Source: an uncultured bacterium (lineage in GTDB: Bacteria > Acidobacteriota > UBA890). From it: DNA of 30,059 bases. The notes under the pieces are model-generated. The model had not been told where the DNA came from. It saw nothing but the letters and a program-made list of their open reading frames with translations, and made no database searches. Position numbers and translations under genes: made by a program. The DNA is taken from NCBI GenBank assembly GCA_937922775.1, contig CALAKE010000485.1, positions 1 through 30,059 on the forward strand, written 5' to 3'. Below, one piece after another: positions 43 to 15,891 of this stretch; position 1 is the first letter of the stretch, and each line of letters begins with the position of its first letter.

Positions 43-672
43 CTAGAACTCCCAGACGATCCCGCCCGCCACGCGGCGCAACGTGTATAGATGCTCGTTG
101 AAATCGCCCTGGATCGACCGCCACATCCAGTAGTTACGAAAGTCGCCCTTCATCGAGATCTTCTCGCTCATGAAGTAGCGGACCCCGATGCCCAGAGCGA
201 AGCCGGGTGCGATCTCAGTGTCCTCCTCGATCACTATGCCGAGCGCCTCTAGCTCGTCCTTGATGCCCTGCCGGGGGTCAAACTTGGCGTACATTACGCC
301 AGCTCCGATCGTGCCGTACGGGACGATCTTCGAGGTTCTCGCACCCGTCTGGAGCACGAGGCTTCCGAAGATCTGCGCCACCTTTCCGTCAAGACCGAAG
401 GTCAGATCACCCTCCACCTCAAAGCCGAATGTGGCGTTGGGCTTGAAGAAATACCCAATCGACCCGCCGACCTGGGCTGCGGTCGAGGCACCGAACATCG
501 AGCCGACGAGCACAGAGACATTTGCCCCACCGACCTGATCAGGAGGAGGTGGCGGCTGAACGTCTTGCTGCTGCTCCTGTGGCCCGTCAGTCGCAGCGAA
601 AGCACCGGCGGGCGTGAGCATCGACAGCGCCAGCGCGATGATGACGGCAGTGCATGATTTCATGAGGTTCAT
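43..672 (-). CDS. Outer-membrane beta-barrel (OmpA-like/porin family) protein
   Basis: Signal peptide (IIALALSMLTPAGAFA), Pro/Gln-rich linker, amphipathic beta-strands (YGTIGAGV, FALGIGVRYF) and C-terminal aromatic residue (IVWEF). Start uncertain (681 GTG, 672 ATG or 663 ATG). Confidence 0.75.
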   Translation of the reverse strand: MNLMKSCTAVIIALALSMLTPAGAFAATDGPQEQQQDVQPPPPPDQVGGANVSVLVGSMFGASTAAQVGGSIGYFFKPNATFGFEVEGDLTFGLDGKVAQIFGSLVLQTGARTSKIVPYGTIGAGVMYAKFDPRQGIKDELEALGIVIEEDTEIAPGFALGIGVRYFMSEKISMKGDFRNYWMWRSIQGDFNEHLYTLRRVAGGIVWEF

Positions 673-685
673 CGGCGGCACCTGG

Positions 686-2303: not shown

Positions 2304-3593
2304 CTATGATGGCACGCCCTGCGCGACGAAATCGGCGAAGCCGTCCGCATCCTGAACAGCATCTCCGATGCGACGCACACCCTCGAGCAGCGACTCGTCG
2401 TCCGTTGCCGTGCTCAGTCGCAGATAGTTCTCACCCTCGCTTCCCAACCTGCAGAACGACGGGCGATCCATCGTGGCAACCCCGTACCGGTACAGAAGGA
2501 ACATCTGCATCAGCGTCGACGGGCTCGACTTCGCCTGCTCCTCCGGCGACATCGCGTTGAAGGCGTCAATGGCACCGACGTTCTCACATGCTCCCGTGAT
2601 GTTCGGGAAGACATAGAAGGCGCCTCTCGGCATCACGCAGGTGACGCCGTCGATGGCGTTGAGGCCCTCGACCACGAGCTTGCGGCGCCGGTCGAACGCC
2701 TCGACCATCTTGGCGATCTCGACGGCACTCTGTGGGTTCTCGAGCGCCTCGCGGCCAGCCTCCTGGATGAAAGGCGGCGTGCAAGAGATGAAGTTGATGT
2801 TGAGGTTCTTGAAAATCTCCGCTTCCTCGACGGTCGGCAACACGCTGTAGCCGAGGCGCCAGCCAGTCATCGCGTAGGTCTTGGAATGACCCGACAGGAG
2901 AACGGTCCGCTCCTCCATCCCGGGCTGGCTGATGATGCTCGAGTGGGTGAGCCCGTCGAAGACGATGTACTCGTAGACTTCGTCAGTGAATACGCGGCAG
3001 TCGGGGTGTGCCTTTTCGGCGATGACCTGGGCAATAGCGGCCATGTCCTCCTCGCCGACAACTCCGCCACACGGATTCGACGGCGTGTTCAGCATGATGA
3101 GCCGCGTACGGTCTGTGATCAGCTCGGCCAGGTCATCGGGTCGCAGTGCGAAGCCGGCGGATTCCCGGATCCGTAGCGGTACTGGCTTGGCCTCGACGAA
3201 CGTCACCCACGACTCGTATACAGGGAAGCCGGGGCTCGGGTAGATCACCTCATCGCCGGGGTTGACGTAGGTGAGCAGGGTGTAGGTGATTGACGGCTTG
3301 GCGCCGGGATGAACGACCACGCGGTTCATGTCGACGTCGATGCCACGCGTCTCGCTGACCTGACGCGCGATCGCCTGCCGCAAGCCGGGGATGCCCGCTG
3401 GGGCAGTGTAGTGACTATTGCCCGCCTCGATCTGTTCCATTCCCACCTTGGCAATGTGCATGGGAGCATCGAAGTCGGGCTCGCCCAGGTTGAACTTGAC
3501 CACATCGAGGCCGGCAGCCGTTGCCGCGATGATGTGATCCCCGAGCTTGAACGCGTTCTCCGTACCGAGATTCTTGAGACGATCTGCGTACAT
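2304..3593 (-). CDS. PLP-dependent aminotransferase class I/II (aspartate aminotransferase-like)
   Basis: NLGEPDF, YTAPAGIPGLR, NTPSNPCG, TDEVYE and the PLP-lysine motif SKTYAMTGWRLG; SD AAGGAG upstream of the ATG. Confidence 0.95.
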   Translation of the reverse strand: MYADRLKNLGTENAFKLGDHIIAATAAGLDVVKFNLGEPDFDAPMHIAKVGMEQIEAGNSHYTAPAGIPGLRQAIARQVSETRGIDVDMNRVVVHPGAKPSITYTLLTYVNPGDEVIYPSPGFPVYESWVTFVEAKPVPLRIRESAGFALRPDDLAELITDRTRLIMLNTPSNPCGGVVGEEDMAAIAQVIAEKAHPDCRVFTDEVYEYIVFDGLTHSSIISQPGMEERTVLLSGHSKTYAMTGWRLGYSVLPTVEEAEIFKNLNINFISCTPPFIQEAGREALENPQSAVEIAKMVEAFDRRRKLVVEGLNAIDGVTCVMPRGAFYVFPNITGACENVGAIDAFNAMSPEEQAKSSPSTLMQMFLLYRYGVATMDRPSFCRLGSEGENYLRLSTATDDESLLEGVRRIGDAVQDADGFADFVAQGVPS

Positions 3594-5330: not shown

Positions 5331-6509
5331 TTATCCCCCGGCACGTAGCCGCTGCAGCCGCAGACCGGCCTCCCGCAGCGTCTCGTTCCTCTTGCAGAAA
5401 GCGAAGCGAACCTGTTGGGCGCCCCTCGCAGATTCACTATAGAACGACGAGCCAGGAACGACAGCCACTCCGATCTCCTCGACGAGGTAGTCGGAGAAGG
5501 CCAAATCGTCGACGTAACCGAAACTGCTGATATCCGTCATCACGTAGTAGGCGCCGTCGGGAACAAAGACGCCGAAGCCGGCATCCTCGAGCGCCCCGCA
5601 GAGCAGGTCACGTCGCTCACGGTATGAGGCACAAAGACCGTGGTAGTAGTCCGCGTGTAAATCCAACGCCACCGCCCCCGCTTCCTGCAGCGGGGCCGCG
5701 GCCCCGACTGTCAGAAAATCATGTACCTTTCGGATCGCAGCCGTGATGTCCTCTGCTGCCACGGTCCAGCCAACGCGCCATCCCGTCACTGAGTAGGTCT
5801 TCGACATGCCGTTGATGACGACGGTGCGGTCTCGCATCCCGGGCAGCGTTATCATCGAGCGATGCCGAAGCGGGCGCTCCGGTTGATCGTAGATGATGTG
5901 CTCGTAGATCTCGTCAGTCACCGCGACGACATTGTGCTTGATGCATAGCGCGGCAATACGAGTGAGCTCGTCGTCGCTGAAGACCTTTCCGGTCGGGTTG
6001 TTGGGCGTATTCAGAATAATGACCTTCGTGTGGCTATTGAACGCCGCCTCGAGCTCCTTCATGTCGATACGCCAATCCGGTGGGCGCAGGGACACGAAGC
6101 GTGGTGTGGCCCCCGAGAGAATCGCGTCGGGGCCGTAGTTTTCGTAGAAGGGCTCGAAGATTACGACCTCGTCCCCCGGATTGATGAGCGCCAGCATCGT
6201 CGAAATCATCGCCTCCGTGGCACCACAGGTCACCGTGACTTCTCGCTCCGGATCGATCCGCACGCCGTCTCGCTCGAGCTTGGCGGCCAGTGCGTGGCGA
6301 ATACTGCGTGCGCCCCAGGTGATGGCGTACTGATTCACGTCGGCATTAATCGCCTTCACCGCAGCCTGTTTGATCTCGTCCGGAGCAGGAAAGTCGGGGA
6401 AGCCCTGAGATAGGTTCACGGCGCCGTGTTCGAGCGCCTTGCGAGTCATCTCCCGTATCACCGACTCGGTGAAGTGCTTGACCTTGGTGGAGAGAACAGG
6501 CCTTGCCAC
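5331..6509 (-). CDS. PLP-dependent aminotransferase class I/II (YbdL/kynurenine aminotransferase-like)
   Basis: NLSQGFPDF, NQYAITWG, NTPNNPTGKVF, TDEIYEH, SKTYSVTGWRVG, GAYY and VRFAFCK. The ORF extends to 6584; GTG 6509 is the preferred start. Confidence 0.93.
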   Translation of the reverse strand: MARPVLSTKVKHFTESVIREMTRKALEHGAVNLSQGFPDFPAPDEIKQAAVKAINADVNQYAITWGARSIRHALAAKLERDGVRIDPEREVTVTCGATEAMISTMLALINPGDEVVIFEPFYENYGPDAILSGATPRFVSLRPPDWRIDMKELEAAFNSHTKVIILNTPNNPTGKVFSDDELTRIAALCIKHNVVAVTDEIYEHIIYDQPERPLRHRSMITLPGMRDRTVVINGMSKTYSVTGWRVGWTVAAEDITAAIRKVHDFLTVGAAAPLQEAGAVALDLHADYYHGLCASYRERRDLLCGALEDAGFGVFVPDGAYYVMTDISSFGYVDDLAFSDYLVEEIGVAVVPGSSFYSESARGAQQVRFAFCKRNETLREAGLRLQRLRAGG

Positions 6510-6751
6510 TTCGGGCGCTGACCCGTCCCGGCTACCAGTTGAGTCTCCCGCTCTTGACTCTGGCGATGAAGATGTTGGTGCCACAGCATACCTACGTTCT
6601 GATTAGCGAGGCTCTCGTCTCAGTTTCTAAAGATACGATCCCGTCATCTTACGTGGGTATCCCAGCAGTGACCAGCAGCACGCTAGCTAGCAGCGACTCG
6701 CGCGCACGGCTAGCATGTGACATTCCATTTCCCTACCCGACCTCAAAGCAC

Positions 6752-7786
6752 ATGCTGCGTCGCTGGATCGAAAACTGGGAGTTGTCCATTTACGCTGACG
6801 ACCTCGATGATCGTCGGCCCCAGGCCTTTGGATGGGGCCTGGATGAGGTGGAAGATCTTATCCCCGGGCCCCTCGACCACCTCGATCCCGAGAAGACACT
6901 GGTCGAGCTCGGCCGAAAGCTGAGTGCCGACGGGGATGCTTTCTACCGCGTCGCACCCCTGCAGGAGGAGAGTTTTGACGGGCACCGTCTTTGCTTCGTC
7001 TCTCCCCTCCCGTCGGTTCACATTGAAACTGCCCGTGCCAGCGCTCGACTTTTCGAATCATCGCGAGCGGCGCGGCGCGCAGTCATTGTCATTCCGCAGT
7101 GGAACTCCAACGAAGATTCGCACGTCCAGGCCTGCAAGATCCTGAACGCCTTTGGCATGACCGCACTGCGGCTGACACTGCCGTTCCACGAGAACCGGCG
7201 TCCGCGCGAGATGCTGAGGGCGGATCCGATGGTGAGTCCGGTGATCGGCCAGACCTTGCAGGAGATCCGGCGGGCGGTTCTGGAGGTGCGGCAACTTGTG
7301 GCCTGGCTGTGGGACCGTGGCTACGACCGAATCGGACTTCTGGGCAGCAGCCTGGGGTCTTGCATCGCCTACCTGGCGTGTGCGCACGAGCCGCGAGTTC
7401 GGGCAATGACTCTCAATCATGCCGCGGCGTACTTCGCAGACGTGGTTTGGGAGGGGCTGGTTACCGATCATGTACGACGCAGTCTCGATTCTCACGTCGA
7501 CCTGCCCACTTTACGTCAGGTCTGGGCACCGATCTCGCCCATCCATTTTGCTCCTCGTCTGGCGCGTCCGGACCTGAAGACTCTGGTAATTTCCGGCGCC
7601 TATGATTCGACCTTCCTGCCTTCCCACTCACGACCGCTGATAGATGCCTTGCGTTCCCAAGGCGCCGATCTCACGCGCGTTGTTCTGCCATGCGGCCACT
7701 ACACCCTGGGACGACCGCCCTTCTACCTCATCGACGCCTTCCTGATTGCGAGCTTTCTGCGTCGCGGGTTGTCCAGGAAGGACTGA
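6752..7786 (+). CDS. Alpha/beta hydrolase family protein
   Basis: Nucleophile elbow GSSLG, with AYD and PCGHY as candidate acid and His. Start set at ATG 6752 (MLRRWIENWE) because the longer ORF overlaps the divergent gene. Confidence 0.8.
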   Translation: MLRRWIENWELSIYADDLDDRRPQAFGWGLDEVEDLIPGPLDHLDPEKTLVELGRKLSADGDAFYRVAPLQEESFDGHRLCFVSPLPSVHIETARASARLFESSRAARRAVIVIPQWNSNEDSHVQACKILNAFGMTALRLTLPFHENRRPREMLRADPMVSPVIGQTLQEIRRAVLEVRQLVAWLWDRGYDRIGLLGSSLGSCIAYLACAHEPRVRAMTLNHAAAYFADVVWEGLVTDHVRRSLDSHVDLPTLRQVWAPISPIHFAPRLARPDLKTLVISGAYDSTFLPSHSRPLIDALRSQGADLTRVVLPCGHYTLGRPPFYLIDAFLIASFLRRGLSRKD

Positions 7787-7866: not shown

Positions 7867-8478
7867 TCAGAACCTGACGGTGATACCGCCAGAGAACTCG
7901 ATGTTGTGCAGCGTGGTGTCCTGAAAGAGGAGGAGGGCTTGGCGAAACTCGGGGTCGAGATTGTCCACCTTGAGCGGCGTGATGTGGTCTTTCAAATCCA
8001 CCCGGGCGCCGAGGCTTCCGAAGGCCATTTTGATGCCACCGCCGAAGACGTAGCCGAGCACCGTCTCGCTAGGGGTGTCTCCCGTCTGCAGCCGGATATG
8101 GTCGAAGCCTAGCCCGCCACCGACATAAGGTTGAACGGGCCCCGGGAAGAGAACTATCTGCAGCTCTGCCTCTGCATAGATCAGCTTGGCGTCGTATGAG
8201 CTCCCGCCCGACAGATTGATGGCGCTCGGGCTGTAGATAATGCTGCCTTCCACGGCGAAGGGGAATGCAGTTACTCCAATGCGTCCGCCGAAAAGGGGAG
8301 CGTTCTTGAAATCCTGGGCAACTTCGGGGAGGTCGACCACATCGAGCACATCTCTGAAGCTGTCGCCGATGAGGGCGCCGATGACGAAGGAAACCTCCTG
8401 CGCCGCCGCAGGTTGAGGGACGAGGAGCACGCCCGTGAGGAAAAGCAGAGCTCCGGCGATCAGACGTGTCGCGCGCAT
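7867..8478 (-). CDS. Outer-membrane beta-barrel (porin family) protein
   Basis: Signal peptide ending PAAA, beta-strand patterns (PYVGGGLG, YVFGGGIK, ARVDLKD) and terminal ITVRF. Confidence 0.8.
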   Translation of the reverse strand: MRATRLIAGALLFLTGVLLVPQPAAAQEVSFVIGALIGDSFRDVLDVVDLPEVAQDFKNAPLFGGRIGVTAFPFAVEGSIIYSPSAINLSGGSSYDAKLIYAEAELQIVLFPGPVQPYVGGGLGFDHIRLQTGDTPSETVLGYVFGGGIKMAFGSLGARVDLKDHITPLKVDNLDPEFRQALLLFQDTTLHNIEFSGGITVRF

Positions 8479-8859
8479 TGAATCCTCCAGTGCTGAGTCG
8501 AAGAGCTGCGCCGCCTAAGGGGCGTGTCGGCAGGCTGCCATGCTTCTGACCATCATTCTACCTCAGACGAGTGAAATGACATTGGTGGGTGGTGCGTCCG
8601 TAGGGGGCGTCTATGTTGTGCCGAGCCGGCTCTATTGGCCTGTCTCCAAGGCACTCTTTGCGACGGGGGGCTGGAGTTATTTAACTTTTTGGTGCACTGT
8701 TTACGTCTTGGCAGGAGTGACCAACGCAGCCCAAAAGCAGCACTTGGTGGTCACTAGCAGAGGCCAATGTCGGAAGGGAGGCACCCTTCGACGTTATCAA
8801 TAGTCAGGGTGCGCCCTGAAGTCGTGCGTATGGGGGCCGTTGCAGGGGGGAGGTGTTTG

Positions 8860-10356
8860 ATGAAGGCCAATCTTTTGGCCAGACTCGGGCTTAGGGAATT
8901 CCTGTGTCGCCCAGCGCATGCGTCCGACCTCGATGCGGCACTGCGGGCCGCCGCAAGGGCCTGCCTCCACTCGCCAGGGGCGCAGCAGGCGTGGACGAGC
9001 CTGCGGGCATCTGAGGTCAGGGTTCCCGATAGTGTGTCATCCGTCGAAGACTTGCCCTACGGGTTCGAGGTGCCTGTCGAGCTCGCCGGCCGCGTTTGTG
9101 GCACAGTCGGGTTCGCTGCCGCCGAGCCGGTCAACGGTGATTCGCAGTCTCTGGCGAGCCTGGTCTCCGGAGTGCTCTCGACCTGGGAGGCCCGGCGGCG
9201 CTTGGCTGAGGCTTCACCGTCGTACACGATCGTGGGGTGCAGCGCTGAGATCCGCGGCACAGAGGCGTTGGCGCACCGGTTTGCGGCCCTCGACGAGCCA
9301 GTTCTCATCATGGGTGAAACGGGGGTAGGGAAGGAGCTTGTCGCGCGCACGATTCATTGCCTGAGCCCCCGGCAGGATGAGGTGCTGTGGGCATTCAACT
9401 GTGCCGCCGTTCCCGAGGATTTGCTGGTTAGCGAGCTCTTCGGCCACCGTCGCGGTGCCTTCACGGGAGCCATCCGCGACCAACGAGGTCGTGTTGAAAT
9501 GGCGAACGGCGCCATTCTCTTCCTCGACGAAGTGGGAGACATGGGGCCCAAGATGCAGGCTGCACTGTTGCGCGTGATCGAGACGGGTGAGATCCAGCAA
9601 CTAGGAGACGAGGGACAGGGCCGCCACGTGAACGTCCGTATCATTGCGGCGACCAATCGTGACCTCGAAACTGAGGTCGCCGAAGGCAGGTTCCGCAGTG
9701 ACCTCTACTATCGACTCAGCCCCCTGAACATCAGGGTGCCTGCGTTGAGAGAGAGGCTGGTCGACATCGCAGTTCTGGCTCGACACTTCGTCCGGGTTCT
9801 CGAAAAGGACTGGCATAGACCCCTGGAGCTCACCGATAGCGCGATTCAGCAACTCGTTGCCTACCCGTTCCCTGGCAACGCACGCGAGCTGCGAAATCTT
9901 ATTTTGCGCGCCGCCGCCACCTGCGTAGATGGTCGAGTCGATGATCTCCTCCTTCCAGGTTCGAATCGACGCCCCGCGAGTGCTGCTCTTCCGTGGCCGC
10001 GTGCCGGCGGTGCCGCGCGTACGGCTGCATCTGGCGACGATCGCGCCCACGAGGATCCAAGGCAGGCCTTTCGCGGGCGCGGGCACCCGAGTGTCGGGAG
10101 CAACCTGGCCCGGGCGTCCAGCGCCAAGGGCAGCTTCCCCCGGGCAGAAGGGCGGGTCAGCAGCACGCGCAGACATTCGAGCGGTCGAGCTGACGGTCGG
10201 TCGACCGATCTCAGCTTGAGCTTGGAAGCCGTGACAGCCGATCACCTGCGCAAGGTTCTCGCAATGGCTGAAGGCAACATCAGTGAGGCGGCCCGACTGC
10301 TGGAGATCCCAAGGACGACACTGCAGTCAAAGCTGGAACGCTACGGGCTCCTCTAG
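8860..10356 (+). CDS. Sigma54-dependent Fis-family transcriptional activator (bEBP) with GAF-like N-terminus
   Basis: Walker A GETGVGKE, intact GAFTGA, Walker B LFLDEVG, RIIAATNRDL, FRSDLYYRL, PGNARELRN and C-terminal Fis HTH NISEAARLLEIPRTTL. SD GGAGGT precedes ATG 8860. Confidence 0.95.
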   Translation: MKANLLARLGLREFLCRPAHASDLDAALRAAARACLHSPGAQQAWTSLRASEVRVPDSVSSVEDLPYGFEVPVELAGRVCGTVGFAAAEPVNGDSQSLASLVSGVLSTWEARRRLAEASPSYTIVGCSAEIRGTEALAHRFAALDEPVLIMGETGVGKELVARTIHCLSPRQDEVLWAFNCAAVPEDLLVSELFGHRRGAFTGAIRDQRGRVEMANGAILFLDEVGDMGPKMQAALLRVIETGEIQQLGDEGQGRHVNVRIIAATNRDLETEVAEGRFRSDLYYRLSPLNIRVPALRERLVDIAVLARHFVRVLEKDWHRPLELTDSAIQQLVAYPFPGNARELRNLILRAAATCVDGRVDDLLLPGSNRRPASAALPWPRAGGAARTAASGDDRAHEDPRQAFRGRGHPSVGSNLARASSAKGSFPRAEGRVSSTRRHSSGRADGRSTDLSLSLEAVTADHLRKVLAMAEGNISEAARLLEIPRTTLQSKLERYGLL

Positions 10357-10400: not shown

Positions 10401-11027
10401 CTAGCGTGCGACCTGTAGTCCCGGCACGAGTTCCCCCATCGACTGTGAAATGACCGCGACATGCTCTTCGCTCAGGCCGCCACCCCAGACCTGCTGAATC
10501 ACACCCTCGGCATCGAGGGCGAGAGTCTGGGGGACCGAATGCATGCCCAAGTCCGCGATGAAAGAGCGGGCATCTTCCACGACGAGCAGGGGGAACTCTG
10601 CCCGCGATGTTTCTATGAAACGCTGCGTCCTGTCGAGATCATCAAGAGACAAAGCAATGAAGCGCAATTGGCCACTGACCGACCGGTGGATGGAATTCCA
10701 GATCGGTACGTTGGTTCTACAGAATGGGCAAGTGGTCGTGAGGACTACGATGATCGTGGCTGGGTTGCCAGGTTCCGCTGGGCGCAGCTCGATAGAGTTA
10801 CCGCTCAGATCGACAGATCCCGTCACGGGGAATTGGGTCCCGACACGGAGCTCGTTTCGACTCAATGCCGGAGAGGGCGGTGCCGGGCCGAAGCGCCTGA
10901 AGCCCCATAGACCAAACTGAATCACCAGAATAGCGAGACAAAGCAGAAGCACCCTGGTGATGACGCGTTCGAACCGGTTGCCACCGCCTCGCTCTTCTCG
11001 CTCCTCGTCAGAATCGCCCGCGCCCAC
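10401..11027 (-). CDS. Membrane-anchored TlpA/redoxin-family thioredoxin-fold protein
   Basis: N-terminal TM helix, CPFC active site, cis-Pro loop SVPQT. GTG 11027 gives better SD spacing than 11033. Confidence 0.88.
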   Translation of the reverse strand: MGAGDSDEEREERGGGNRFERVITRVLLLCLAILVIQFGLWGFRRFGPAPPSPALSRNELRVGTQFPVTGSVDLSGNSIELRPAEPGNPATIIVVLTTTCPFCRTNVPIWNSIHRSVSGQLRFIALSLDDLDRTQRFIETSRAEFPLLVVEDARSFIADLGMHSVPQTLALDAEGVIQQVWGGGLSEEHVAVISQSMGELVPGLQVAR

Positions 11028-11154
11028 CGCCACCTCCTATCTCACCGGCCTCAGGATCATCCGGTGCGCACAAAGATGGCGCGGCGGGTCGATGGACGCA
11101 AGGGGGAAAGCCCATCGGCCCGCGCGCGCGCTTCGCTGCTGAGCTCGAGGTGTC

Positions 11155-11421
11155 TCAGTAACAGAGAACGTCCGCCGACATTCCGTCGGAGCACCATACG
11201 GTGCAACCGCAGCCCCACCATTCCCACATTCTCGAGCAGCCCTCGTCGAAGATGCTGCAGAAGACGGCGCACGAGTCACCACAATCGACCCAACCATCGC
11301 GGCCGCCGCCTGCACGTTCGGCGTACGCTGGTGACGCAGTCAGATGCACTGTGGCGAGCAATACCAGGGCGATGGCCCAAACTAACGTCGCGATCTCGAA
11401 GTATTTCCTGCGGTTGCTCAA
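11155..11421 (-). CDS. Secreted Cys/Trp-rich small protein, copy 2
   Basis: TTG start with purine-rich SD, 34-aa signal peptide ending AYA, 54-aa mature region with 8 Cys. Differences from copy 1 are almost all synonymous. Confidence 0.88.
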   Translation of the reverse strand: MSNRRKYFEIATLVWAIALVLLATVHLTASPAYAERAGGGRDGWVDCGDSCAVFCSIFDEGCSRMWEWWGCGCTVWCSDGMSADVLCY

Positions 11422-11488
11422 TTACTCTTCCCCTTTCAGGTTCTCCCTCTGTTCCTTGCTGCTCGTTGGCGTTATTCGGGATGGCAAC

Positions 11489-11755
11489 TTAGTAGCAGAG
11501 AACGTCCGCCGACATGCCGTCGGAGCACCACACGGTGCAGCCGCAGCCCCACCATTCCCACATTCTCGAGCAGCCCTCATCGAAGATGCTGCAGAAGACG
11601 GCACATGAATCTCCACAGTCGACCCAACCATCGCGGCCTCCTCCCGCACGGTCGGCGTACGCGGGTGACGCGGTCAGGTGCACCGCGGCCAGCAATACAA
11701 GGGCGATGGCCCAAACCAACGTCGCGATCTCGAAGTACCTTCTGCGTCTATTCAA
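11489..11755 (-). CDS. Secreted Cys/Trp-rich small protein, copy 1
   Basis: SD AGGAGG, TTG start, signal peptide ending SPAYA; mature DRAGGGRDGWVDCGDSCAVFCSIFDEGCSRMWEWWGCGCTVWCSDGMSADVLCY; 83/88 aa identical to copy 2. Confidence 0.88.
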   Translation of the reverse strand: MNRRRRYFEIATLVWAIALVLLAAVHLTASPAYADRAGGGRDGWVDCGDSCAVFCSIFDEGCSRMWEWWGCGCTVWCSDGMSADVLCY

Positions 11756-11881
11756 TGTTCCCTCCTATCTCAGGCTTGTTCGCTCTTTTCGCTCGCCGGC
11801 CTCCCTCTGTGCCGGCCTATCACTATCGAGGTCAAGAACGGACGGCGGGGCCCCTCCTGCCCAGGGTTGATGTGGACACCC

Positions 11882-12919
11882 TCAAGGGGCGTTTGAGGCG
11901 GTCATCTGAGTCCCCACAGAGAAGCTCAAGCCATCCCCATCAGCAGCAACCAGGACACCGTCGGAGTCCATTGTGGCTCCGAAAACACGCCCTTCAGCCA
12001 CCCACTGTTGTTCGAGCTCTCCATCCAGTGAGTATAGGTAGACAACTCGAGAGTTGATCTTGTGCATCACATAGGTAAGAAGGAGCCGATCGCCGGAGGC
12101 GCTCAGGTCCATGTGCAGAATCGGGTCTAGGTTTGCCTGTGGCATGACTTTGCGAGCCTCCTTCAAGCGAATCTCGGCATCTTCGCGGAGCCCAGGCGGA
12201 TCAATGGGCCATTCGCCAACCTGGTTGAGCTCTCTGTCGAACACCCTGACAACGAGCTGTCGGTTGTCGAGCCAATACAAGTTGTCTTCCGAATCGAGGA
12301 CGAAGAGACTGTGAGTCCAAGCTTTGTAGCCGGCGTCAGGCTTTCGGAGAACCGGCTCCGCATCGGTCAGGTCCCCCGAGTAGCGTGTCAGCAGTGCCTC
12401 ACCTTCGCCGGGCCAGGCCAAGACCTCACCCGTCGAGGTAGCGACGATGCTCGAGACACCGCGCTGGGTCACGGACGCCAGATACGTCCCATCCGGCGCG
12501 TACTTGGTGATGCGCCCTAGGCCGTCGTCAGCCACGAATAGGTTTCCGGATGCGTCGATCGCTACGCCGGAAGGCTGCTTGAGCTCACCGGGGCCCTCGC
12601 CCTTGGACCCGAACACCTGAATGACGTTCACACTGCTGTGGTCCACGGTCGGGCGTAGTTGCAGGACACGGTTGTTCCCCGTGTCGGAAACGTACAAGTC
12701 GCCCGTGCTGGACGCGGTCAGGATCATCGCCATATAGAGGGGATCCTCGAGGCCATCGAGCGTTTCCACTCGCAGCGTGGTTTCGGCGAATGGCGTCGGC
12801 TCGGCAGAGTCCGGCGCTGATGGCGAAAGACCCATGATGGCCACCAACCAGATCGTGGCCGCACCGAGAACAGTGACCCGGCCAATCGGGGACATGAGAG
12901 GACCGACAATTCGCGACAT
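11882..12919 (-). CDS. NHL-repeat / 6-bladed beta-propeller exported protein
   Basis: N-terminal hydrophobic signal; NHL repeats GDLYVSDTGNNRV and FGSKGEGPGELKQPSGVAIDASGNLFVAD; SD AAGGAG. Confidence 0.88.
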   Translation of the reverse strand: MSRIVGPLMSPIGRVTVLGAATIWLVAIMGLSPSAPDSAEPTPFAETTLRVETLDGLEDPLYMAMILTASSTGDLYVSDTGNNRVLQLRPTVDHSSVNVIQVFGSKGEGPGELKQPSGVAIDASGNLFVADDGLGRITKYAPDGTYLASVTQRGVSSIVATSTGEVLAWPGEGEALLTRYSGDLTDAEPVLRKPDAGYKAWTHSLFVLDSEDNLYWLDNRQLVVRVFDRELNQVGEWPIDPPGLREDAEIRLKEARKVMPQANLDPILHMDLSASGDRLLLTYVMHKINSRVVYLYSLDGELEQQWVAEGRVFGATMDSDGVLVAADGDGLSFSVGTQMTASNAP

Positions 12920-12957
12920 CGCGTGCTCCTTGGTTAGAGGTTGTCCCTAAACCAATG

Positions 12958-12974
12958 AGCAATCCTCGTGCCAA
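12958..12974 (-). promoter_or_regulatory. Sigma54 (-24/-12) promoter
   Basis: Minus strand reads TTGGCACGAGGATTGCT, matching TGGCACG-N4-TTGCW; predicted +1 near 12947, 28 nt before the propeller ATG. Confidence 0.85.
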
Positions 12975-13064: not shown

Positions 13065-13087
13065 GAGTCAGCGAGCAAAACAGGATA

Positions 13088-13111
13088 CGGGTGCCGAAAT
13101 ATCGGCACCCG
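13088..13111 (-). terminator. Hairpin after the anti-sigma gene (terminator, or alternatively an operator)
   Basis: CGGGTGCCGA-AATA-TCGGCACCCG 10-bp perfect stem 17 nt past the stop; only a weak U-tract follows. Confidence 0.45.
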
Positions 13112-13128
13112 CAGAGTCTTGACCGGAG

Positions 13129-13968
13129 CTAGAGTGGTGCGTCCGCGCTCGCGAGCAGATCGCGGACCTCGGATGCGAGGGCCTTGGCTTCCGAGCCGAA
13201 GACGAAGCGCCAACTCTCGGCTCCCAACCGTGGTGCGGCGAGCTCGTCCAGGATCTGGAGGGACTCGTCTGTCCGCCCGAGCAGCAGCAGCGCGTTCGCA
13301 CGGTACCAGCATGCCTGTCTCAGAATCGCGCTGTCGCTACCGTCACCCAAGGACTCCAATACGGTGACCGCGTCTTCGGGCCGCCCAGCCAAGTAATGTG
13401 CGACGCCTGTGTAGAAACGGAAGAAGTCGACGTCGGCCTGCGCCGGTGGTGCATCGGCAAGAAGCTCGAGGACATGCTCTGGCCGGTCGGCGAGCAAGGC
13501 TTGTCTCGCCTCGTCCAACAACTGCTCCTCACCAGCGCGGCGCACGGCATCAGGAGACGGCCGGCCAATAGTCTCGACGAACTCATCGGTGGCCAGATTT
13601 GCCAACTCGGCTCGCAGATCGACAGCAGGTATTACCTCCGTACGCTGCATCATCGGCGAGGTCCAGACAACGACCGCCAGCAACGCCGCAACCGCCACCG
13701 TAGCGGCCAAGCGCAAATACTGGCGCGCCCACCGGCGGCTGCTGACGGGAGCTCGTGTCGGGAAAGGAATGGTGTTCGGCGTCGAGTTGGCCTCCGCCTC
13801 GCGCAGGGCCTCCAACGCCGCGTCCCGATGGACTTGCAAGCTCACAAGCACCGCATGGAGGTCGGCACATTCCTGACAGCGATCCATGTGATTGAGCTGC
13901 TCGTCGAGGTCCTCAGGGTGCGTATCCCCGTGAATCAGGTCGAGCAGGTCTTCAGTGCTGAGATGCAT
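13129..13968 (-). CDS. Zinc-binding anti-sigma factor (zf-HC2/ZAS) with TM helix and periplasmic TPR-like domain
   Basis: HMDRCQEC (HxxxCxxC), TM segment LAATVAVAALLAVVVW, TPR-like helices (FYTGVAHYLAG, WYRANALLLLG); directly downstream of the ECF sigma gene. Confidence 0.82.
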   Translation of the reverse strand: MHLSTEDLLDLIHGDTHPEDLDEQLNHMDRCQECADLHAVLVSLQVHRDAALEALREAEANSTPNTIPFPTRAPVSSRRWARQYLRLAATVAVAALLAVVVWTSPMMQRTEVIPAVDLRAELANLATDEFVETIGRPSPDAVRRAGEEQLLDEARQALLADRPEHVLELLADAPPAQADVDFFRFYTGVAHYLAGRPEDAVTVLESLGDGSDSAILRQACWYRANALLLLGRTDESLQILDELAAPRLGAESWRFVFGSEAKALASEVRDLLASADAPL

Positions 13969-14033: not shown

Positions 14034-14603
14034 CTAATGGACATTTTCCGACAACATCTTCTTCAGGTTCCCGAGGGCTGATTGTAGTCGACTATGCAGA
14101 GTGGAGATGGGCGCCCCGGTGAGCTCGGATGCTTCTCTCAGCTTCAGCGGGGGTTGCCGGAGAACCAACAACTCAATGGCTTCACGCTGCGCCTGAGGAA
14201 GCTCCTGCATGCGGCGCAGCATCTCCTTGACCTGCGCGGCCTCGGCCGTCTTTTCTTCTCGTACGACCAGCCGCTCTTCCTGGTCGGCGTCGACGCCTCC
14301 AAGACGTGGCCCTGGCTCACCGGGCTCGGCAAAGCTCGTGAGGCGGGAGCGGGCCCGCACCCTATCGATGGCGCAGTGGTTGACGCTGCGAGTCAGGTAG
14401 CGCCCGGCAGACTCGACATCGGGGAGGTTACCGGCACCGGCGAGCACTCGAGACACAGCTTCCTGGACCGCATCCTCTGCGTCATACGGGTTTCCGGTAA
14501 TCCGCAGCGCAAGGCGCACCCAGATCTCACGGTTCTGCTCGACTGCGGCGGCGACCAGCTCGGCTCTGCTCAGTTTTCGCTCAGCTCTGGTTACTCGGGC
14601 CAC
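14034..14603 (-). CDS. ECF RNA polymerase sigma-70 family factor
   Basis: Region 2 (AEDAVQEA..YLTRSVNHCAIDRVR) and region 4 (LPQAQREAIEL..ISTLHSRL). GTG 14603 with SD GGAG preferred over 14801. Confidence 0.9.
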   Translation of the reverse strand: MARVTRAERKLSRAELVAAAVEQNREIWVRLALRITGNPYDAEDAVQEAVSRVLAGAGNLPDVESAGRYLTRSVNHCAIDRVRARSRLTSFAEPGEPGPRLGGVDADQEERLVVREEKTAEAAQVKEMLRRMQELPQAQREAIELLVLRQPPLKLREASELTGAPISTLHSRLQSALGNLKKMLSENVH

Positions 14604-14904
14604 CTGATGCTCTCCGGGACCGCCTTCCAGCGTGCACAATCGGGGAGACGACGTTGGCATCGCCTTCCCACAGGGCATGATAGCCGTGACCCAGTAATTG
14701 ATGGGAGACAAAAGTGTCTGCCCACTCGAACACAGCGGTCCCCAGCCCTGAACAGCCTGCCGCTGCGCATTCAGCGGCTGGCTCAAATTCAAAGGTAGCA
14801 AATTCCACTATGCGGGCATACAACAAACAACTCGACCATGGTGGGCCAGAAATCTCCAGATGGGGGGGCAACGAGTGGCTACAGAGGCCACTGTATTCTC
14901 TAGA

Positions 14905-15891
14905 TCACGAGGTAGGGCCGCGATTGGCGAGCTGATAGTAGCCGCGCCGCACCCGTGTGAAATCGTCGTACGAAGAGAGAATGGAAGAAACCGTGACGTT
15001 CGGGTTCTTGGCCCTGATCTCAGCGCCCATCGAAATCACCCGATCGGTAATCTCGGCGACCCGCATCGGTTCCTCGGCTTCGGACAAGACCCGCTTGCAG
15101 GCTGCGACGATGGTGTCGGGTCTGCCGCCTCCCGACCGTCTCCCGCGCCCCGACTCCTCACCCTGCGCCGGTTCGATTTGCGATGCCGAATCGGCCGACA
15201 TCCGGGCTCGTCTCACCTGCTTGGATAGTCGGTTGAGCGTCCTGGCCAACTCCTTCGAGGTTGCGACCGCTGTCTCCAGCTCTTCTTCGAGGTCGGAGAG
15301 CTTCCTCGCATACCTACGACTGACGGCAGCCCGCTGCTGCAGCGCACGGCGCTGCCCGCCACCCCTGCGGCCGAGGTTCTCGACCTTGATCTTCCTGAAG
15401 ACTGAAACGGCCTCGGCAGGAAACTTGCGCATCTTGCCGACCATCTCGCTGGGGATCCTGTCGGGCTGCTCTTTCACGTACTTCGAGAGGCTGGCAAGGC
15501 TGATACCTGTCCTGGCAGCCATCTCCGTCAAGGTGAAGAGCTGCTTGTCCGTCTCATCCAATGGATCTTCGCCGTCAGCAACCGCGCGAATCATTCGCAA
15601 GGCCACCCTCGGCACCATGGGATGGCTCGGGCTCCCCAGGTAGGGGATCTCCTCGCGGTGGTCGCGCAGGATCTCCTCGAGGACCTCGACGTCGATTTCG
15701 ATCTCCTGGGAAATCTGTTCCTTCCCGACAACCAGCTCAGGGTCTCGCTCGAAGGACGGATACAGCTTGAGGATGCGCTCGACATCGTCATCGTTGAGCG
15801 AGTTGCTCTCGAGCCCCATGTACTTGATGACTCGAAGAATGGGTGCCAGCTCCAGATGGGGGTGCCTACCGTGAAGCTCCAGTGCAGTCAT
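14905..15891 (-). CDS. Multi-HTH DNA-binding protein (MerR/excisionase-like HTH, coiled coil, C-terminal winged helix)
   Basis: FTLTEMAARTGISLASLSKY HTH, heptad-rich segment, and TIVAACKRVLSEAEEPMRVAEITDRV...FTRVRRGYYQL resembling HARE-HTH. Alternative start at 15819. Confidence 0.7.
   Translation of the reverse strand: MTALELHGRHPHLELAPILRVIKYMGLESNSLNDDDVERILKLYPSFERDPELVVGKEQISQEIEIDVEVLEEILRDHREEIPYLGSPSHPMVPRVALRMIRAVADGEDPLDETDKQLFTLTEMAARTGISLASLSKYVKEQPDRIPSEMVGKMRKFPAEAVSVFRKIKVENLGRRGGGQRRALQQRAAVSRRYARKLSDLEEELETAVATSKELARTLNRLSKQVRRARMSADSASQIEPAQGEESGRGRRSGGGRPDTIVAACKRVLSEAEEPMRVAEITDRVISMGAEIRAKNPNVTVSSILSSYDDFTRVRRGYYQLANRGPTS

Follow-up and report, generated by a model that had tools for sequence, protein, structure and literature searches.

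Results

Gene content of the locus

The locus described here lies in a 30,059-nt stretch of DNA from an uncultured marine-sediment acidobacterium (Acidobacteriota, UBA890; GCA_937922775.1, contig CALAKE010000485.1, positions 1–30,059 of the forward strand), hereafter called the window. Combining an open reading frame (ORF) listing with Pfam and NCBIfam scans of 26 window ORFs, we find a single minus-strand run that comprises a sigma54 (–24/–12) promoter (TGGCACGAGGATTGCT, 12958–12973), a gene for an NHL-repeat beta-propeller protein (11882–12919), two tandem genes for small, cysteine (Cys)-rich peptide precursors (A, 11489–11755; B, 11155–11421) and a gene for a membrane-anchored, CPFC-containing thioredoxin-fold protein (10401–11033), exactly as a first-pass annotation of this DNA had described it. 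The exported propeller, the acidic Cys-rich miniprotein and the anchored thioredoxin clearly belong together as a module under sigma54. The promoter, located 39 nt 5′ of the ATG of the NHL gene, is the sole exact match to TGGCAC-N5-TTGCW in the 30-kb window.

An undescribed family of acidic, Cys-rich peptides

Each precursor is 88 aa long, initiates at a TTG codon and, in A, joins a 34-aa Sec signal peptide (…SPAYA|D) to a 54-aa acidic core with eight Cys. The composition that had been listed for this mature part (8 Cys, 5 Trp, 9 acidic and 3 basic residues, net charge –6) proved correct, with the Trp count read off the sequence, as did the Cys spacing C-x3-C-x3-C-x6-C-x8-C-x-C-x3-C-x9-C. Precursor B is a tandem paralogue, its mature part differing from that of A by one residue (D/E), and in DNA alignments the similarity between the two copies extends from ~20 nt 5′ of the start codon to the stop codon. 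Since the mature parts are separated by this one conservative change and ten synonymous ones (dN 0.008, dS 0.58), the duplication is old and both copies are retained by selection. A second copy was seen only in the window genome, and all other loci examined carry a single one.

The peptide has no match in Pfam or NCBIfam, and the literature searched (on NHL/thioredoxin proteins, bacterial defensins and Acidobacteriota small proteins) contained no description of such a family. The claim that it stands outside the characterised families thus holds: The peptide family is undescribed, and its arrangement with the neighbouring genes is new, albeit built from known kinds of parts. A word-indexed search of 5.8 billion clusters returned 11 close relatives, and a profile search of all 1.84 billion representatives gave 32 matches, 30 of them proteins of 75–111 aa. 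Two large proteins matched by the profile (P0039 and P0042) were rejected as spurious, being carbonic-anhydrase and InlB-repeat proteins. The peptide relatives come from Acidobacteriota. One metagenomic family member (P0027, a relative of P0017) is intact from its signal peptide up to the third or fourth Cys, after which it continues into unrelated sequence; a frameshift in the gene or an error of assembly is the probable cause.

Classic enzymes of peptides that are made ribosomally and then modified post-translationally (RiPPs) were likewise said to be missing, which our scans bear out. Radical SAM, YcaO, LanM, DUF692 and C39 transporter genes were not found among the 26 window ORFs, nor did the related loci scanned have a RiPP modifying enzyme (MNIO/DUF692 included) or a C39 exporter beside the precursor.

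The N-terminal part of the precursors is unusually conserved, with basic residues, a W/F-F-D/E-I-x-T-x-x-W-A-I-A-L-V… segment and then T-P-A-F/Y-A, and is followed by a Gly-rich linker that leads into the acidic core. Of the 41 family members listed, nearly all have small residues at positions –3 and –1 (A-x-A site), in keeping with signal peptidase I. Export by the Tat route was rejected, as the twin Arg is not conserved (RK, KK or NR in relatives). In an alignment of 37 cores, seven Cys are retained without exception or almost so (mature positions 13, 17, 21, 28, 39, 43 and 53), and an eighth at position 37, which creates the C-x-C motif, is limited to some branches and missing from 23 of the 37 members. 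By count, 20 members have seven Cys, 14 have eight, two have six and one has five. The four disulfides proposed for the peptide therefore suit the branch to which the window belongs and not the family, in which only seven Cys are conserved and odd counts are frequent. No Trp, His or Met is conserved in these cores, and their only invariant positions are Cys. Net charge is strongly negative (median –7, range –13 to +1). Within a genus, peptide orthologues evolve under purifying selection (dN/dS ~0.05–0.2), in signal and core alike. The family is divergent between genera and not visibly under diversifying selection.

AlphaFold2, given a 37-sequence alignment, predicted the core with a mean predicted local distance difference test (pLDDT) score of 79.6, rising to 85–92 over residues 11–50. 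The model comprises a helix (residues 13–23), which presents Cys 13, 17 and 21 on one face, and three strands (28–34, 38–43 and 48–52). For this confidently predicted fold, no significant match was found in PDB (Foldseek), VIA, AFDB clusters, Swiss-Prot models or the ESM Atlas: Foldseek gave nothing with an E value below 0.25 in PDB and Swiss-Prot models, the best Z score of VIA over 48,161 PDB representatives was 3.9, and the ESM Atlas feature search yielded no usable match. Within the noise of the VIA search lay the defensin-like LURE1.2 (Z 3.2) and a designed miniprotein of one helix and three strands (Z 2.8). Matches obtained with a model of the full precursor were discarded, because the signal helix alone had matched.

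A Cys-free NHL propeller with a conserved N-terminal tail

The NHL protein (345 aa) lacks Cys and exceeds the Pfam cut-offs for NHL (38.3 bits against 20) and SGL, with only about two blades being canonical. Its NHL profile matches the PknD sensor, TRIM71, Pizza, PAL (E 3e-9) and the NHL domain of SOQ1 (E 4.6e-5). The N-terminal ~30 residues (window positions 12830–12919), with the consensus M-S/P-R-I-I-x-P-x-V-S-P-x-G-R-V-x-V-L-x-G-A-T-L-W-L-V-A (alignment A1), are among the parts best conserved across genera, and the remainder is 36–41% identical. This conserved cytoplasmic tail and the hydrophobic segment behind it, readable as an anchor or signal, suggest that the anchor remains uncleaved and has its partner within or at the membrane. 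The signal segment of the peptides is over-conserved in a similar way.

Of 14 genomes of one Acidobacteriota family, 7 contain a propeller orthologue. The sister family yielded none, and neither did 386 sampled genomes from the phylum's other families, where the sole further match (G260, E 1e-21) is confined to generic NHL blades. When ~140 loci around generic NHL genes were searched by a heuristic scan, Cys-rich ORFs with a signal peptide turned up only beside members of the window's own NHL subfamily.

A thioredoxin of the TlpA/ResA/CcmG type

The thioredoxin-fold protein (210 aa) has a hydrophobic segment at about residues 26–47 and scores above cut-off for AhpC-TSA (32.4 bits) and Redoxin (28.6 bits). 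Fold, motif and anchor agree with its earlier placement in the TlpA/ResA/CcmG type, and its nearest solved structures are those of ResA, CcmG/DsbE and StoA, that is, the reductive group. It is not a member of the named equivalogs ResA, DsbE/CcmG, StoA and MauD in NCBIfam (32.9 bits against a cut-off of 170, in the case of ResA, then 25.7 against 123, 25.5 against 210 and 23.5 against 189), and the match to MauD (TIGR02661, E 3e-5) is weak. Orthologues lie 3′ of the peptide gene in five further loci (L001, L002, L105, G010 and G007), and in a rearranged locus, L102, a CRYC variant overlaps the stop codon of the peptide gene.

Between peptide gene B and the thioredoxin gene, an imperfect GC-rich hairpin followed by CAUCUUUGUG (11068–11139, minus strand) forms a possible partial terminator or attenuator. 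With its weak U-tract, this hairpin could lower read-through and so set a high ratio of peptide to enzyme.

The genome of the window organism provides further thiol-redox functions. It contains a gene for a CcdA/DsbD_TM electron channel and, outside the window (G000, contig C235:11339–12472), a 434-aa frame that unites VKOR and DsbA-like thioredoxin domains. VKOR-thioredoxin fusions are the usual substitute for DsbB/DsbA, and DsbB was not found in this genome (81% complete). As general oxidation would thus be supplied elsewhere by the VKOR fusion, a reducing or reshuffling function is the more likely one for the thioredoxin of the operon.

Predicted sigma54 control and an attached ECF sigma factor pair

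Orthologous loci from other genera (L001, L002, L004, L005, L006, L013, L014, L016 and L017) retain the TGGCAC-N5-TTGC element 5′ of their NHL gene, which lifts it above a chance match. A convergent gene (8860–10356, plus strand) encodes a sigma54 enhancer-binding protein with an N-terminal domain of ~115 aa, an AAA+ domain (Pfam Sigma54_activat, 3.6e-61) in which GAFTGA can be read in the translation, and an HTH_8 domain. Its ORF opens at 8767, but position 8860 is the likely start, because the orthologue alignments begin at residue 31. The N-terminal domain has no Pfam match. In every locus long enough to show it, the activator gene adjoins the peptide gene. The genome also contains rpoN.

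About 120 bp 5′ of the promoter lies the palindrome TGCCGA-N4-TCGGCA (13092–13107), the core of GGGTGCCGA-N4-TCGGCACCC and a candidate activator site. It has one exact match in the window (0.13 expected), and 16 fetched loci, belonging to several genera, have the same palindrome. The palindrome and its T-rich tail also score as a hairpin of the terminator-like kind (13086–13113) just past the anti-sigma gene and may double as the terminator of that gene. The hairpin has 12 bp, is followed by TCCTGTTTTG and lies 16 nt past the anti-sigma stop codon. Both roles are possible, and conservation of the sequence across genera favours a putative protein binding site. Promoter, distance, AAA+ GAFTGA activator with a helix-turn-helix (HTH) domain, rpoN and upstream palindrome were hence all found, as expected for a sigma54 regulon.

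Further 5′ lie genes for an extracytoplasmic function (ECF) sigma factor and an anti-sigma-like membrane protein. The sigma factor ORF (14034–14801, minus strand; 255 aa) matches Sigma70_r2 and r4_2 in Pfam as well as TIGR02937, and its true start is probably near 14600, given that orthologues measure 189–208 aa. The anti-sigma-like protein (13129–13968, minus strand; 279 aa) is predicted to have a cytoplasmic N-terminal domain, one transmembrane (TM) segment and a periplasmic TPR-like domain, whose Pfam TPR matches are weak and below cut-off. Its gene stays 3′ of the sigma factor gene in all loci, rearranged L102 included. A redox-sensing anti-sigma factor of the ZAS type was considered and rejected: H-x3-C-x2-C is present in the window and L102 and missing from G003 and G010. 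No ECF-type promoter was found 5′ of the operon.

The region upstream of the ECF sigma gene carries a conserved element of its own. In three genera, it reads ATTTTCGTCTTT…TGTGGCACAAATG (L023, ~2040–2090; L024, ~2180–2220; L101, ~3140–3180), with TGGCAC present and the –12 TTGC missing; a different, though related, element, TTTTGTCTCCCAT, is seen in the window and L002.

Conservation and divergence of the gene set

The module occurs in a single Acidobacteriota family, whose members are uncultured. When 185,579 species genomes were scanned with a pattern, four were returned, and near-identical DNA occurs in marine and other sediment metagenomes. Contigs of sufficient length share the gene order HARE-HTH, ECF sigma, anti-sigma, palindrome and sigma54 promoter, NHL, peptide, thioredoxin (where present), convergent activator and a small outer-membrane protein (OMP), and in these syntenic loci the NHL gene is immediately 5′ of the peptide gene wherever the contig suffices. 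The proposal of a recurrent and conserved four-gene unit under sigma54 is upheld by the promoter, activator and linkage retained in orthologous loci. The unit was drawn too small, since the sigma54 activator and the ECF sigma/anti-sigma pair are always included. A protein encoded directly 5′ of the ECF sigma gene in all genera (14905–15891, minus strand), which joins a HARE-HTH domain to an extra HTH, is far better conserved than the periplasmic proteins.

L102 departs from this order. Here, a divergent activator gene is followed by the ECF sigma and anti-sigma genes and by a sigma54 promoter with one mismatch, placed 45 nt 5′ of a gene for an 8-Cys peptide; the TM-anchored, CRYC thioredoxin-like gene starts within the end of the latter, and an NHL/DUF5128 protein is encoded on the other strand. 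Aligned with their counterparts in the window, the six proteins are all 21–42% identical. Because a locus this divergent retains all six parts in a new order, it constitutes the best evidence that they work together and argues for a functional link. L102 also points to sigma54 control of the peptide gene as the conserved core.

We also compared the window's proteins with their G003 and G010 copies. Identity amounts to 65–74% for the ECF sigma factor, 66% for the HARE-HTH protein, 53–54% for the activator and 53% for the OMP, versus 33–34% for the anti-sigma protein, 36–39% for the NHL protein, 33–39% for the peptide and 28% for the thioredoxin. The four predicted periplasmic parts thus diverge fast and together (28–39%) compared to their cytoplasmic neighbours (53–74%).

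Discussion

What might this module do? We tentatively favour a reading that we hold to be plausible, if short of probable: a lineage-restricted envelope system in which a disulfide miniprotein, a propeller scaffold and a CcdA-fed editing reductase cooperate, much like a split version of SOQ1/NHLRC2. The analysis itself establishes gene content, promoter, conservation, linkage, export signals and a predicted fold. On the side of the gene set, the favoured reading draws on the conservation of promoter, palindrome and activator, on linkage including L102, and on the A-x-A site, the seven Cys, the fold and the purifying selection seen in the peptides; on the side of redox chemistry, on the reductive type of the thioredoxin, CcdA and the VKOR fusion in the genome, the joint periplasmic divergence and the existence of known TlpA-NHL-Cys fusions.

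From these features we infer cleavage, a disulfide pattern, a direction of electron flow, contact between propeller and peptide, and a physiological role, as follows. A cytoplasmic signal would act on the adjacent sigma54 activator, which would bind the palindrome and fire the –24/–12 promoter. The resulting transcript would encode the tethered or exported propeller, one or two Sec-exported precursors and, in the branch of the window, the anchored TlpA/ResA-like thioredoxin. Signal peptidase I would cleave after the conserved A-x-A to release a strongly acidic periplasmic miniprotein of 43–56 aa, which may fold into a helix bearing three Cys packed on a three-stranded sheet bearing the others, its disulfides being introduced by the general VKOR-DsbA oxidase. 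The thioredoxin, receiving electrons via CcdA, could then reduce or reshuffle a disulfide that involves the eighth Cys of the window branch, while the Cys-free propeller may serve as a binding scaffold, as in the fused SOQ1/NHLRC2 layout. The product would contribute to periplasmic thiol-redox or envelope homeostasis together with the ECF sigma/anti-sigma pair.

SOQ1, from the thylakoid lumen of Arabidopsis, fuses a TlpA-like domain, an NHL domain and a small C-terminal Cys-pair domain (bioRxiv 10.1101/2021.03.16.435614), a layout that human NHLRC2 has as well. The six-bladed NHL propeller of SOQ1/NHLRC2 is Cys-free and a presumed scaffold, with electrons proposed to arrive via a CcdA homologue (bioRxiv 10.1101/2021.03.16.435614; PMC6107167). 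Shared with our module, on the non-cytoplasmic side, are a TlpA-like CxxC domain close to the membrane, an NHL propeller free of Cys and a small partner that bears Cys. The likeness is one of parts and topology only: The module has three separate genes, an optional thioredoxin and sigma54 control, its small partner is a predicted helix plus three strands with 7–8 Cys instead of an Ig-like n-DsbD-type domain with a Cys pair, and sequence similarity to SOQ1 is restricted to generic NHL repeats. The thioredoxin also resembles the substrate-specific periplasmic reductases TlpA, ResA, CcmG, StoA and MauD, with which it shares an N-terminal anchor, the thioredoxin fold, CxxC, a gene beside that of its presumed client and CcdA in the genome. 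Their clients are apocytochrome c, Sco/CoxB or a dehydrogenase subunit, whereas here the presumed client is a small Cys-rich protein. If propeller and thioredoxin indeed act on the miniprotein, this would offer a simple bacterial system for studying how thioredoxin-NHL pairs choose and process clients, a question that stands open for both human NHLRC2 (FINCA disease) and plant SOQ1.

In its control, the module is reminiscent of PspF-pspA and ZraR-zraP, where a dedicated activator gene sits beside a single –24/–12 promoter with an upstream palindrome and an envelope product is made. The products are unrelated, however, and the activator lacks a receiver domain, is not a bare AAA+ protein like PspF and comes with an ECF pair always attached. 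The locus thereby illustrates what sigma54 targets in the poorly known Acidobacteriota of sediments, and it amounts to a complete, readable regulatory circuit around a peptide family that is absent from Pfam and NCBIfam.

Several observations weigh against the favoured reading. The thioredoxin, presented in the first-pass annotation as a fixed member, is missing from seven loci, all with 7-Cys peptides (G003, G004, G008, L110, L112, L116 and L118); throughout this clade, the peptide gene is directly followed by the convergent activator gene, and the thioredoxin is not essential to the module. It is present at eight loci whose peptides have 8, 6 or 5 Cys. On the NHL tree, all 7-Cys loci fall into one clade (support 96/94), so that the link between seven Cys and no thioredoxin counts once. 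We consequently dismissed a repeated association (seven loci versus eight), and the joint absence of the eighth Cys and the thioredoxin represents one evolutionary event, suggestive and not statistical. The odd number of conserved Cys, moreover, poorly fits a purely structural protein with all its Cys in disulfides. Most of the linkage is synteny within one family, in which unrelated neighbours (HARE-HTH, SbcC-like and OMP genes) also stay in place, and L102 is the only independent case. As to co-transcription, the hairpin ahead of the thioredoxin gene is stable (fold of 11034–11160, –53.2 kcal/mol, z –2.1), and metatranscriptome contigs cover only 12075–12740, a part of the NHL gene, at a depth of ~2 that may include DNA carry-over. 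Finally, co-folding the propeller (residues 38–345) with the mature peptide gave a score of 0.02 and a partner pLDDT of 30–38, which is evidence neither way.

Could the miniprotein instead be a signal? Made under sigma54, it might be sensed as a periplasmic ligand by the TPR-like domain of the anti-sigma protein, or by the propeller, and thereby switch the ECF sigma factor in a sigma54-to-ECF relay. We consider this unlikely, although it accounts for the position of the ECF sigma/anti-sigma pair directly 5′ of the sigma54 promoter in every locus, for the survival of the anti-sigma/promoter/peptide adjacency in L102, where the NHL gene has moved, and for an anti-sigma divergence (33–34%) that matches that of the peptide (33–39%), with the sigma factor at 65–74%. 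TPR domains also commonly bind peptides. Yet such adjacency could reflect a mere shared stress regulon, the TPR matches stay below cut-off, and purifying selection acts on the peptide, which shows no sign of diversifying like a pherotype inside a genus. Besides, the thioredoxin and the propeller would be left without a role.

A further proposal, which we regard as doubtful, is a periplasmic thiol relay: The miniprotein, of a new fold, would carry free thiols, be served by the NHL scaffold and the CcdA-fed thioredoxin, and have its redox state read by the TPR anti-sigma protein to elicit an ECF response. If true, the module would amount to a bacterial counterpart, split and genetically tractable, of SOQ1/NHLRC2, for which substrates and mechanism are unknown.

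The thiols might alternatively bind metal. Seven to eight Cys in ~50 residues, a median net charge of –7 and frequent odd Cys counts are what a reduced, acidic metallothionein-like chelator of Cu, Zn or Cd might look like, and a TlpA-like reductase could maintain its thiols in the free state, a task that TlpA performs for ScoI and CoxB. The reductive type of the thioredoxin and CcdA in the genome accord with this idea. Nevertheless, we deem it improbable: The compact fold is predicted with confidence and places Cys on facing surfaces, in the manner of disulfide miniproteins, the peptides have almost no His or Met, and the 7-Cys clade does without a dedicated reductase even though the periplasm has an oxidase. 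In addition, no metal transporter, sensor or chaperone gene was seen among the window ORFs scanned, and the activator has no recognisable metal-sensing domain. A precedent exists in bufferins, which are MNIO-modified, Sec-exported, Cys-rich copper-binding RiPPs (PMC11626156). The peptides resemble them in having a Sec signal on a small Cys-rich periplasmic peptide and a dedicated operon, and differ in their Cys pattern and in the lack of an MNIO/DUF692 or DUF2063 partner and of a DUF2282-type Pfam match. A bufferin-like product was rejected, as no MNIO/DUF692 gene was found among the window ORFs scanned. The peptide also adds to a short list of Sec-exported Cys-rich miniproteins in diderm bacteria.

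A role in competition, with the peptide acting as a defensin-like antimicrobial (a bacteriocin with a cysteine-stabilised alpha/beta fold), strikes us as very unlikely. The window peptide and other 8-Cys members do fit the defensin Cys pattern C-X(2,18)-C-X3-C-X(2,12)-C-X(4,17)-C-X-C (PMC11561630), the predicted fold has a helix on a beta-sheet, and there is the weak structural likeness to LURE1.2 (VIA Z 3.2, within noise). With cis-defensins (PMC11561630), the peptides have in common a Sec signal, small size, a C-x3-C helix on a beta-sheet and, in 8-Cys members only, C-x-C. This motif, however, is absent from the 7-Cys majority, so the family as a whole misses the Cys framework; no defensin or toxin was retrieved by Foldseek from PDB or Swiss-Prot models, and no fold match is significant; and the peptides are strongly anionic where cis-defensins are cationic. 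Nor was an outer-membrane exporter or immunity gene found among the scanned window ORFs, and partners such as a propeller, a thioredoxin and a sigma54 activator are not known for defensins.

Most improbable of all is a RiPP or cofactor-bearing subunit, be it a peptide modified by the propeller in a PAL-like manner or a methylamine-dehydrogenase-like enzyme of propeller and peptide with the thioredoxin as MauD, for despite a formal likeness to mau (propeller heavy chain, Cys/Trp-rich light chain, MauD-type thioredoxin by TIGR02661, E 3e-5), the NHL profile match to PAL (E 3e-9) and a precursor N-terminus more conserved than the core, as in RiPP leaders, the family conserves no Trp and has Cys as its sole invariant core residues, the propeller has no invariant His for a PAL-type zinc site, the peptides are not Gly-ended, MauG, MauE, radical SAM and MNIO genes were not found among the window ORFs scanned, and peptide and operon neighbours match no Pfam family of these systems. 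The two specific candidates were rejected on the same grounds: a PAL-type NHL enzyme because a six-orthologue alignment has no invariant His and the peptides end in CY, CEM, AET, CAS and similar, and a methylamine-dehydrogenase-like quinoprotein because there is no conserved Trp, no light-chain Pfam match and no haem protein gene nearby.

Beyond the module, the window encodes small outer-membrane beta-barrels at 7867–8478 and 43–681 (both on the minus strand). The former is found in the same position, directly past the activator gene, in G010 and L002, at 53% identity. A 427-aa protein (6503–7786, plus strand) scores 195.9 bits for RcgR, a family of putative quorum lactone hydrolases with a curated cut-off of 182.

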